Shown here piece by piece: positions 10,485 to 54,799 of a stretch of DNA of 64,000 nucleotides (the first letter of the stretch is position 1; each line of letters opens with the position of its first letter). The DNA lies in NCBI GenBank assembly GCA_963805005.1, contig CAWDSJ010000001.1:357734-421733 (forward strand), written 5' to 3'. The notes beneath the pieces are model-generated. The model had not been told where the DNA came from, searched no databases, and saw nothing but the letters and a program-made list of their open reading frames with translations. The position numbers and the translations under genes were made by a program. This DNA comes from an uncultured Alphaproteobacteria bacterium. Lineage in GTDB: Bacteria; Pseudomonadota; Alphaproteobacteria; Micropepsales; Micropepsaceae.

Positions 10485-10630
10485 ACCGCCAAGACGCCAA
10501 GGCGCTGCGCGCATGACACTGGGAGCGCCGGCTTCCAGCCGGCATGCGATGGTGCGTCACGACTAATGCCGGCAAGATGCCGGCGCTCCCAGTGCGACGA
10601 AAGTCCTTGGCGCCTTGGCGTCTTGGCGGT
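10485..10630. repeat. Nested REP elements: ACCGCCAAG-family arms enclosing a GGGAGCGC-family doublet
   Basis: Perfect 21-bp IR 10485-10505 / 10610-10630 and perfect 16-bp IR 10517-10532 / 10579-10594. Confidence 0.85.
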
Positions 10631-12849: not shown

Positions 12850-13128
12850 GGCTGCGCGAGAACGCGAAACATTCTTCCTCCCCCGTGCGAAGCATGGGGG
12901 AGGTGTCTCCCGCGGCGTTAAGCCGGGGGAGAGGGGGGCATCGATTCCCGTTTCGCGCCATTGCGCGGCTGCGCATATCGGCAAGGTCGCAAATCATTGG
13001 GATGGCATCGTCGTAGCGCCCCCCTCCTCCTTCGCTGCTCTGCAGCTTCGGAGGACTTTCGAACAAACCCGCCGAAGCTCGCGGAGCGAAGGCGGGCCCT
13101 TCGCTGCGCGAACGGGGAAGGAAGAATA
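12850..13128. repeat. Gene-less derivative of the DUF559 palindromic element, carrying a 72-bp insertion
   Basis: 12850-13015 is an inverted homolog of about 17640-17825, including the codons for MICDLADMR. 13025-13096 is a separate double-hairpin insert. Confidence 0.8.
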
Positions 13129-24513: not shown

Positions 24514-24548
24514 GTTCGATCTCCATTGAATTGCCGTCCGTCGTTTGG

Positions 24549-24640
24549 CTCGCCGAAGCTTCAGCGAAGGCGGGCTGCAAATCCTCTGCGACCGCCGCGC
24601 TAAATCTTTTCACGTGTCTCCAACCCGTGATTCCCGGTAC
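24549..24640. repeat. Half copy of the 70-bp double-hairpin element abutting a CTGCGACC-family repeat
   Basis: CGCCGAAGCTTCAGCGAAGGCGGG matches the 3' hairpin of 13025-13096 and 52586-52654. 24575-24640 resembles 39759-39825. Confidence 0.6.
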
Positions 24641-32324: not shown

Positions 32325-32474
32325 CCTCCCTGAGAGCGCGGCCATCTTGGCCGCATCACGGTGCAGTAACATCAGGTGCGGGCTGGAAGCCCGCGCTCCC
32401 AGGTAGAAACTGTTTTCATTGCACGGCGGGTCCGCACCGCCGATGACCAACTTTGTGGTGAAAGCGATCCGGAG
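32325..32474. repeat. Composite REP element, empty allele
   Basis: Highly similar inverted copy at 52491-52716; contains the GCGGGCTGGAAGCCCGC and GGCGGGTCCGCACCGCC hairpins. Confidence 0.85.
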
Positions 32475-52490: not shown

Positions 52491-52716
52491 CTCCAGATAT
52501 CTTTCACCACAAAGTTGTTCATCGGCGGTGCGGACCCGCCGTACGCCGTACAATGAAAACACTTTCTCCCTGGGAGCGCGGGCTTTCCTCCTACGATGCT
52601 ACGCAGCTTCGGAGGACTGACCCGCTAACCCACCGAAGCCTCGGCGAAGGTGGGCCAGCCCGCACCTGATGTTACCGCACCGTGATGCGGCCAAGATGGC
52701 CGCGGTCCCAGGGAGG
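52491..52716. repeat. Composite REP element, filled allele (inverted copy of 32325-32474)
   Basis: Collinear with 32325-32474 except for a 69-bp insertion and a 7-bp TACGGCG duplication. Confidence 0.85.
52586..52654. mobile_element. 69-bp double-hairpin mini-element inserted without target duplication
   Basis: TCCTCC...GCTTCGGAGGA...CCCACCGAAGCCTCGGCGAAGGTGGG splits GGCTT|CCAGCCC of the host REP; homolog at 13025-13096. Confidence 0.75.
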
Positions 52717-53240: not shown

Positions 53241-54799
53241 ATGAACGCTGTCAGTGAAGGCTCGGTGCACTGGGATCCTTACGATCCCAAGTATTTCGCC
53301 AATCCGTACCCGACCTTCCGGCGCCTGCGCGAGGAAGCGCCCCTCTATTACAACGAGCAGTACGATTTTTACGCAGTGAGCCGCTACGAGGACGTCGAGC
53401 GGGGGCTGACCGACCGGAACACCTTCATCTCGGGCCGCGGGGCCGTTCTCGAGTTCATCAAGTCGGACACTCCGATCCCGAAGGGTATTTTCATCTTCGA
53501 GGATCCCCCCTCCACACCATCCATCGCGGCCTGCTCACGCGGGTCTTCACGCCGAAAAAGATGGCGGCGCTCGAGCCCCGGATTCGCACGTTCTGCGCCG
53601 AGGCGCTCGATCCGTTGGTGGGAGGCGGCGCATTCAATTTCATCGACGATCTCGGTGGCAAGATGCCCATGCGGGTCATCGGCATGCTGCTGGGCATTCC
53701 GGAGCAGGACCAGCAGGCGGTCCGCGCCCGCGCCGACGCTGCTCTGGCGACCGAAGCCGGCAAGCCGATGGACGTGGCGAGCTTCCCTTTCGTCGCCGAA
53801 GGTTTTGACGAGTATATCGAGTGGCGGGCCAAGCACCCGTCCGACGATCTGATGACCGAGCTCTTGAATGCGGAATTCGTCGACGAGACGGGCGAGACTC
53901 GACGGCTGAGCCGCGACGAGGTGCTGATGTTCGTCAACATCCTCGCCAGCGCCGGCAACGAGACCACCAATCGCCTGGTCGGCTGGACCGGCAAGGTGCT
54001 CGCCGAACACCCCGATCAGCGGCGCCAGATCTACGAGAATCGAGCCCTCATCCCGCAGGCCATCGAGGAGATTCTCAGATACGAGCCGCCGGGACCTTCC
54101 ATCGGCCGCTATGTGGCGCGAGACGCCGAATTCCATGGGACGAAGGTGCCGGAAGGCAGCGCCATTCTCTTCCTGGCGGCGGCCGCGAACCGCGACGAGC
54201 GCAAGTTCGTCAACGGCGAGCGTTTCGACATTCACCGGGAGCGCGTGCCGCACTTTACCTTTGGTTTTGGGTTCCATGCCTGTCTCGGCAATGCGCTGGC
54301 GCGTGTCGAAGGCCGGATTGCGCTGGACGAGTTGCTGAACCGCTTCCCCGAATGGGATGTCGATCTCGAGAATGCTCGCCTCTCCTCCACCTCGACCGTG
54401 CGCGGCTGGGAGACGCTGCCGGCGTTCACCCCGAAGGCCAAGCGGAGCGCGCAGCCCAAGCCCGCCGCCGAGGCTCCGCCCGCGGCGGCCCCTGCGCTCG
54501 CCGGCGCGGAGAGCTGGAAAATGACCCTCAAGACGCCGATGGGTCCTCAAGATATGACGATGCAAATCGTCCGCCAGGGCGATGCCTTCACCGGCCGGAT
54601 CGACAGCCCAATGGGCTCGGAGACCATCAACAACGGCAAAATCGCCGGGGACACGCTCAGCTGGACCATGGACGTGAAGAAGCCCACGGCCATCAAGCTG
54701 AGCTTCGAGGTGAAGGCGACAGGCGAGACCATGAGCGGCCACGCCAAGCTGGGCATGTTCGGCAAGGCGGAACTGAGCGGCCAGCGCATCCCGTCGTAG
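53241..54799 (+). CDS. Cytochrome P450 fused to a C-terminal beta-rich domain; -1 frameshift in a C6 run near 53505-53510 (likely sequence error)
   Basis: WDPYD...FANPYPTFRRLREEAP, ASAGNETT, EILR, FGFGFHACLG. One extra C restores DPPLHTIHRGLLTRVFTPKKM. Confidence 0.82.

Follow-up and report, generated by a model that had tools for sequence, protein, structure and literature searches.

What is the short block that sets apart two otherwise nearly identical hairpin repeats, how did it enter one of them, and what kind of enzyme moves it? The locus that raises these questions lies in a 64,000-nucleotide stretch of DNA (hereafter, the window; C1:357734-421733) of a 4.42-Mb genome in four contigs with 62% G+C. 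When 52491-52716 of the window was aligned against the reverse complement of 32325-32474, the sole large difference was a 69-bp block at 52586-52654, which begins TCCTCCTACG, finishes GAAGGTGGG, and is flanked by ...GCGCGGGCTT on the left and CCAGCCCGC... on the right. The repeat that carries the block is a REPIN; REPINs are REP doublets that form hairpins and are mobilised by RAYTs (Bertels and Rainey 2011, PMC3116915). This carrier, which we call type A, consists of the hairpin GCGGGCT-TCC-AGCCCGC (loop, GCGGGCTTCCAGCCCGC), a spacer, and an inverted hairpin, with the element lodged in its 3-nt loop (T^CC, the caret marking the point of insertion here and below). The parts of the filled and empty copies are as follows, in coordinates of the window.

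52491..52585, plus strand: left carrier part, A-type REPIN, up to ...CCTGGGAGCGCGGGCTT
52586..52654, plus strand: element copy A1, 69 bp, in the A-type REPIN, at the loop of its first hairpin; filled/empty junction GGGCTT^CCAGCCC, without duplication
52655..52716, plus strand: right carrier part, CCAGCCCGC...TGCGGCCAAGATGGCCGCG...
32325..32474, minus strand: empty twin of the A1 carrier; free site between 32387 and 32386, core at 32337-32403

At its two borders the filled copy has GGGCTT^T... and ...G^CCAGCCC, where the empty twin has GGGCTT^CCAGCCC. Because the bases beside the junction differ between the filled and the empty copy, the junction cannot be slid, and there are zero duplicated bases. 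The alignment thus agrees with a sequence-only reading of the window, which had proposed an inverted near-copy with a 69-bp insert at GGCTT^CCAGCCC and no target duplication, and the junction is unambiguous. The 67-bp carrier core is 99% identical to that of the empty twin (1 base in 67 differs) and 96-97% identical to two further empties; the chance expectation for the 69-mer is zero matches in shuffled sequence. On the 3' side of the element, a P450 gene (53241-54799) is divided between two overlapping frames (ORFs 53241-53852 and 53561-54799), and the overlap near 53500-53600 suggests a frameshift, a pseudogene, or a sequence error.

The element is non-coding, 68-72 bp long, and made of two hairpins of like design with a variable spacer (~12 nt) between them, and its termini fall exactly at the hairpin feet (5'-TCCTCC...GGNGGG-3'). 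In A1, the parts are these.

52586..52616, plus strand: hairpin 1, TCCTCC-TAC-GATGC-TAC-GCAGC-TTC-GGAGGA
52617..52628, plus strand: variable spacer (CTGACCCGCTAA), whose sequence is subfamily-specific
52629..52654, plus strand: hairpin 2, CCCACC-GAA-GCC-TC-GGC-GAA-GGTGGG

Both hairpins share a layout of a 6-bp foot stem, a symmetric 3x3 internal loop, an inner stem of 3-5 bp, and a short loop (for hairpin 1: 6-bp foot stem, 3x3 internal loop, 5-bp inner stem, and 3-nt loop). Their general forms are TCCTCC-TTC-GCTGC-TCC-GCAGC-TTC-GGAGGA for hairpin 1 and CCCGCC-GAA-GCYC-loop-GRGC-GAA-GGCGGG for hairpin 2. In sequence, hairpin 2 is the diverged reverse complement of hairpin 1, and the element model also matches the opposite strand; the TCCTCC and GGNGGG termini are not inverted repeats of one another. 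For some copies, folding predictions give two REPIN-like alternatives, a pair of hairpins or a single long imperfect one. When 26 copies from nine genomes were aligned, standard pairs filled 98.3% of pair cells, and three of the six foot-stem pairs of hairpin 2 showed compensatory changes (CCCGCC/GGCGGG, CCCACC/GGTGGG, CCCTCC/GGAGGG, and CCAGCC/GGCTGG). This degree of pairing and the compensatory changes suggest that the hairpins are under selection. Hairpin 1 is nearly invariant among copies and across three alphaproteobacterial orders, an invariance that is in part ascertainment, hairpin 1 having also been the search key. The GTAG/CGTC tag is not conserved at the element ends; CTAC (GTAG on the other strand) occurs in some subfamilies only, and there within hairpin 1. 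A search of Rfam matched the element to no family. We additionally observed that the hairpin 1 foot stem pairs a Shine-Dalgarno-like GGAGGA with an anti-Shine-Dalgarno-like TCCTCC and that the B carrier described below includes CACCTCC / GGGGGAGGAAGA; such repeats, if transcribed, could bind or mimic the 16S rRNA 3' end.

A search of the genome with nhmmer recovered 13 copies (E-values 1e-9 to 1e-18), of which 11 are full, one has the interior of hairpin 2 replaced, and one is split by an insertion sequence. All 13 begin TCCTCC, and all but one finish GGNGGG. Every copy is extragenic and lies inside another short repeat, and these repeats belong to six carrier families (A-F). Two further features of the window belong here.

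13025..13096, plus strand: element copy B3, 72 bp, with a TCCTCC start and a GGCGGG end, in the C-rich 5' arm of a B-type hairpin repeat
24548..24574, plus strand: solo E-family hairpin, homologous to hairpin 2 (singlet)

The carrier of B3 is a DUF559-associated repeat (CCTCCC...GGGAGG). Here the sequence-only reading had placed a homolog in the C-rich arm of a DUF559-type hairpin, and the position, the length of 72 bp, and the shared ends all agree. What it took for a half copy at 24549-24574 is real (24548-24574) but not truncated: it belongs with the solo hairpins of a separate family (CCCGCC GAA GCTTCAGC GAA GGCGGG; ~15-20 copies), kin of hairpin 2.

We searched for empty sites by removing the insert and using the joined flanks as the query. 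Each of the six carrier families proved to have empty paralogues that run across the junction (two in F, many in every other family), at empty-to-filled ratios of ~18:3 (A), >30:5 (B), 8:2 (C), and >10:1 (D and E). The junctions read as follows.

A: GCGCGGGCTT^CCAGCCCGC
B: CGCCACCTCCC^CCATTCGCT
C: GATGATCCAC^CTGGGTGGCCC
D: GGCCGYCAA^GACGCAAAGAC
E: GCTGAAGCT^TCGGCGGG (2-nt ambiguity)
F: CCCCGCGA^AAGCGGGG

At 12 sites in this genome, each aligned with empty paralogues, the ends are fixed and the duplication is zero; the small exceptions are A2, which has two extra G at its 3' end, and C2, the last base of which is mismatched. Collected genome-wide, then, the copies have ends that are not ragged and targets that are not duplicated. 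Since repeated 15-mers cover just 3.7% to 12% of the genome, six independent insertions in repeats are far from chance. The proposal of a discrete, tiny, gene-less element that resides in other hairpin repeats is borne out by the six carrier families of this genome and by over a dozen found elsewhere, with empties in each family tested.

Two of the 13 copies have been modified in ways of their own. In copy B4 (C1:335703-335781), the interior of hairpin 2 is swapped for a CCCCGG...CCGGGG hairpin, which makes a third nesting level; the same module is the alternative hairpin in some B-family repeats. A B-type copy is split in its spacer by a 1.47-kb IS5-family element (C1:1436413-1437902) that encodes a 460-aa transposase, has ends GTCGGCCCTAAAAAAC and a GAATTA duplication, and is present in ~20 near-identical copies. 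We considered the split copy (C1:1436395/1437945) as an autonomous form and rejected it, the insert being an ordinary IS5-family element with its own inverted repeats and the GAATTA duplication. Nesting also involves other repeats, as in the following feature of the window.

10485..10630, strand not given: A-type REPIN (10517-10594) nested in a D-type palindrome

The host palindrome is of D type, perfect, and 21 bp long, and ~ten other copies of it have an 18-nt loop; the junction of the nested REPIN is less clean than that of the 70-bp element. This example shows that the nesting of hairpin repeats is general in this genome.

To count arrivals, inserts can be compared with their carriers. The A1 carrier is 85% and 74% identical to the A2 and A3 carriers, and the A1 insert is 93% and 91% identical to theirs (87-93% among the three inserts overall). 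In the B family, the inserts are 86-92% alike and the carriers 59-66%; in the C family, the values are 89% and 83%. Filled carriers are thus nearer to empties than to one another and inserts are more alike than carriers, which implies repeated insertion or precise excision. Judged from these identities, the insert has, within a family, arrived or been precisely lost several times, always at one position. Element subfamilies, defined by the spacer and the hairpin 2 stem, follow the carrier family both within the genome and across species, so part of the spread must be of composites or by conversion between like carriers, and counts of "independent" sites may include composites multiplied as units. 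At the orthologous locus the relatives compared are too distant, with only a neighbouring small gene aligning (~70-79%); one sediment metagenome holds a near-identical strain at ~3x depth, in fragmented contigs that miss the site.

We next consider where in the carriers the element lands. When the reconstructed empty sites were folded as DNA, the insertion point fell in the apical loop for A and F, in an internal loop near the hairpin apex for E, at the stem foot or junction for C, within the predicted stem for D, and in or beside the 5' arm for B. A perfect stem of at least 5 bp, with no more than 4 unpaired bases on each side of the insertion, abuts the insertion at 16 of 24 genome sites and 23 of 40 metagenome sites, compared with 3.3% of random positions. 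About 60% of the 64 distinct sites lie in the apical loop of such a perfect stem; the common geometry is mid-loop, with 1-2 bases unpaired to the left and 2 to the right, and the loops are mostly 3-4 nt. No flanking base or dinucleotide was conserved among 51 metagenome copies, in which the last base of the 5' flank was A in 22, T in 14, C in 12, and G in 3, and the top dinucleotide reached at most about 25%. Thus, of the target-site consensus that had been sought, a structural preference for the hairpin loop emerged and a shared flank sequence did not. The B-type site CACCTCCC^CCATT has no loop yet recurs in several contigs, indicating that structure is not the entire rule. We conclude that the element prefers the hairpin loops of other repeats.

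Beyond this genome, the hairpin 1 pattern (≤3 mismatches) was present in 7 of 37 genomes of the genus Rhizomicrobium. Copies number 13 in the genome studied here, 8 in G002, 9 in G008, and 1 each in G010 and G011 (1-9 across other genomes), and G028 and G034 hold hairpin-1-only variants. Exact hairpin 1 also occurs in metagenome-assembled genomes (MAGs) labelled Rhodospirillaceae, Alphaproteobacteria, and Parvibaculum, in one unclassified bacterium, and in 116 metagenome stretches; soil metagenomes carry the element, and the plasmids and viral/phage contigs searched held zero copies. The carriers vary by lineage and are again hairpins, with junctions such as these.

CCCCTCTCCCC^TTGAGGGAGAGGG
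GCGCGCT^TCGCGCGC
GGGACCGCGGACGT^CCCGTCCGC
ATGCCGCGCGT^AGGCGCGGCAT
TGTCAT-stem-RA^NN-stem-ACCCAGG (stems covary)

In a Rhodospirillaceae MAG (G065), at least 40 empty copies read GCATTTTCCCGA^CAAGTGGGAACC..., and seven are filled at exactly that point; the same MAG has an identical insert in four copies of one carrier family. G002 and G008 have one occupied locus in common, neighbouring genes included, so some copies are vertically inherited. That hairpin 1 is nearly invariant over three alphaproteobacterial orders suggests either that it moves horizontally or that it has a conserved protein partner.

Hairpin 1 is also found alone, in the loop of a TGTCAT-type REP (L203 and L213) and in Parvibaculum MAGs (L078, L081, and L086), where a PF01797 search gave no match. 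In G034 and G028 (L011, L013, L016, and L021), it lies within another composite, CCCCCCACCCG-hp1-GACCTCCCC.... The TGTCAT-type REP is the commonest carrier across species, and small GIY-YIG nuclease genes directly adjoin such REPs (L150, L151, and L179); these genes may be partners of that carrier family. In the genome studied here, at C1:3731146-3731364, a GIY-YIG gene lies ~100 bp from an empty F-type hairpin.

Which enzyme acts on the element? The sequence-only reading had assigned it to HUH/Y1 chemistry (IS200/IS605, RAYT) and had looked to an autonomous partner gene (HUH, GIY-YIG, or DUF559) between the same hairpins. Neither proposal was borne out. The genome has six matches to PF01797 (Y1), of four types, and none of the six genes is flanked by intact element copies. 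The four types are represented at C1:1445459-1446133, C1:3398672-3399493, C1:3055963-3056580, and C1:1636196-1637149. We looked for a Y1, GIY-YIG, or DUF559 gene flanked by the element hairpins in this genome, 11 further carrier genomes, and 110 external loci, and found none; a gene bracketed by a separated hairpin 1/hairpin 2 pair was found neither in the complete genome nor in the external loci. The surroundings of the element at 30 loci from genomes and 80 from metagenomes (~0.6 Mb of external flanks) were likewise free of Y1 genes, and none of the Y1 genes of the 11 other carrier genomes was flanked by it, absence calls that MAG incompleteness weakens. No single Y1 subtype runs through all carrier genomes; in G002 the 1637 type stands alone, in G065 the 3056 type does, and G071, which carries the element, has no PF01797 match. 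The Y1 assignment further lacks a flanking tetranucleotide and a strand bias, the copies being 6 co-oriented and 6 opposed with respect to GC-skew-defined replichores (a small sample). A guide-like match between spacer and flank gave no signal above permutation, and neighbour genes did not recur save generic ABC ATPases and a few GIY-YIG genes. On the other side, PF01797 was present in 7 of 7 element-carrying genomes of the genus and in 6 of 34 others (Fisher 7.6e-5, uncorrected for phylogeny and genome size).

Individual genes were examined as partners. The RAYT-like gene C1:1445459-1446133 has a B-type hairpin upstream and, downstream, an A-like hairpin and a decayed element copy 40 nt past its stop codon. 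We rejected it because in G034, G028, and G013 it is GGGGACACTATACTTAATT-type repeats that bracket the orthologues, and in G011 and G010 there is nothing similar. Inverted GGGGACACTATACTTAATT-like or GGGGACGTCTAATC-like repeats frame the genes of this 1445 type (L039, L040, L045, and L042; G034, G028, and G013), and the units look like IS200-like or RAYT-like elements with ends unrelated to ours. Three RAYT genes, two of them in tandem (C1:1635522-1637149 and C1:1648980-1649552), are flanked by CCTGGGAGCGCGGACG-type hairpin arrays, that is, by the carrier A family; one of the three scores above the NCBIfam cut-off for REP-associated tyrosine transposase, and their open frames extend upstream through the repeat arrays. 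The genome also has four IS110-type genes. An IS110-type (PF01548) enzyme was set aside because it is absent from G002, G008, and G065, which hold 7-9 copies each, and because the targets are diverse.

Taken together, these results define a real, trans-mobilised, structure-targeting mini-element. We are highly confident of its mobile nature, that is, of discrete ends and repeated precise insertion without duplication into hairpin repeats. For the process as a whole, the best explanation is a REPIN-like element moved in trans into hairpin loops by an enzyme that is most likely HUH/Y1, to which we give a probability of roughly 0.5. The enzyme class taken by itself, a single-strand-specific HUH/Y1 (RAYT-like) nuclease-transferase, is a tentative assignment, favoured by the hairpin ends with seamless junctions, the loop of a RAYT-type REP as target, and the co-occurrence within the genus. 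We postulate that a trans-acting protein would recognise hairpin 1 by sequence and hairpin 2 by shape and would cut at the hairpin feet, after which the element would join the single-stranded DNA of an extruded or replication-exposed hairpin. A single cut per strand would leave no duplication and would preserve the outer stem, and the kept outer stem may make insertions harmless. After insertion, some carrier-plus-insert composites multiply as units. A somewhat unlikely variant is that the insertion is guided by shape: an unlinked enzyme, possibly not Y1, would read the near-invariant 31-nt hairpin and paste the doublet into any stable hairpin loop. If true, this mode would let the element move horizontally among orders of soil Alphaproteobacteria, parasitising REP/REPIN populations.

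The main rival dispenses with a dedicated transposase and treats the double hairpin as a swappable module of mosaic intergenic repeats, like BIMEs and RIMEs, copied from one repeat to another through gene conversion, repair of breaks that host nucleases make at hairpins, or template switching when forks stall. The correlation of element subfamilies with carrier families within and across species fits such exchange, as do the other modules that are swapped or nested (the alternative B-family hairpins, hairpin 2 of B4, and the REPIN in the D-type palindrome) and the empty outcome of the partner-gene search. However, the same exact ends occur in at least 15 unrelated carrier contexts with zero shared flanking homology, and homology-driven conversion or template switching would not yield jumps between families with identical ends; moreover, the A1 carrier is 1 base in 67 off its empty twin, and co-converted flanks are not seen. 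We therefore judge module exchange to be unlikely.

A recombinase of another class could also act in trans, whether an IS110-type DEDD enzyme with a guide RNA, an IS607-type serine enzyme, a tyrosine enzyme on folded strands, or a small GIY-YIG nuclease. All of these classes can insert without target duplication. Four IS110-type genes are at hand in the genome, small GIY-YIG genes stand beside the TGTCAT-type carrier repeats, and REPs are known insertion-sequence targets (PMC3733652). Yet the IS110-type genes are missing from G002, G008, and G065 despite their 7-9 copies, the single conserved target or core expected of guide- or core-directed systems is not seen, and no gene of such a class recurs beside the element; this makes the proposal quite improbable. 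The last alternative, that the long form is ancestral and the "empty" repeats are precise deletions from filled ones with no insertion ever, is close to refuted. Precise loss of hairpin-bounded DNA is possible, but empties outnumber filled copies in every family (and by at least 40:7 in G065), the insert would have to predate six unrelated families here and a dozen elsewhere, and well over a hundred independent precise deletions would be demanded.

How REPs and REPINs spread has been a question since their discovery, and the element supplies dozens of exact filled/empty pairs. It offers base-defined ends, a clear structural target (the hairpin loop), and repeated events in a complete genome of cultivable size, and its chemistry is directly testable with oligonucleotides and reporter hairpins. 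Short repeats can parasitise other short repeats, which accounts for part of the "Russian-doll" mosaic of intergenic repeat clusters.

Among known systems, the REPINs are the first comparison. The insertion sites and mechanism of spread of classical REPINs are still undefined (PMC8266576). The element resembles them in being ~70 bp, non-coding, and extragenic, in joining two inverted REP-type palindromes by a short spacer, and in having dual folds and solo kin; RAYT genes with REPINs of their own are also present in this genome. It differs in that no cognate RAYT flanked by the same hairpins was found, in its low copy number (13), in its diverged arms (hairpin 1 invariant, hairpin 2 covarying), in the absence of a conserved GTAG or CGTC end tag, and in that its exact insertion sites, with empty counterparts, are visible inside other repeats. 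Extragenic populations of tens to hundreds are typical of REPIN/RAYT systems, and this genome has 13 doublets and ~15-20 related solo hairpins. Because the test for a cognate flanking RAYT failed, we do not file the element as a REPIN/RAYT member. With miniature derivatives of IS200/IS605, it shares end hairpins, a lack of terminal inverted repeats and of target duplication, and seamless junctions. In contrast to these, it shows no conserved tetra- or pentanucleotide target on the 5' side of its left end, ends exactly at the hairpin feet rather than some bases off, and has neither a replication-strand bias (6:6) nor an autonomous tnpA/tnpB copy.

Among larger elements, the insertion sequences IS1397 and ISKpn1 target the loops of palindromic units, and IS110-family elements target REPs. 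They share with our element the REP hairpin as target, often at the loop or centre, but they are autonomous elements of 1-1.5 kb with a transposase, mostly sequence-specific or with short duplications, whereas our element, at 70 bp, has no gene and occupies a wide diversity of carriers. Against an element mobilised by an IS110-type (DEDD) enzyme stand the lack of consistent DEDD co-occurrence and of a single conserved target or core, and unlike classical DDE-derived MITEs, the element has no terminal inverted repeats and zero target-site duplication. BIMEs of enterobacteria, RIMEs of rhizobia, and NIMEs of Neisseria likewise combine different palindromic modules in intergenic clusters; here, the module is demonstrably inserted, with exact borders and empty sites, and not merely juxtaposed. 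A further parallel is a remark made in passing by Di Nocera et al. 2013 (PMC3733652), who noted REP dimers of three species inside palindromes and, in Thermomicrobium roseum, hundreds of unoccupied target palindromes. The general phenomenon thus has a precedent in REP dimers centred in other palindromes, although those belong to other phyla and to GTAG- or CGTC-tagged REP superfamilies, and our element has no such conserved tag. What is new with this element is the set of base-exact junctions, the range of carrier families that a single element occupies, the evidence that events were repeated, the statistics on loops, and a distribution that crosses orders.
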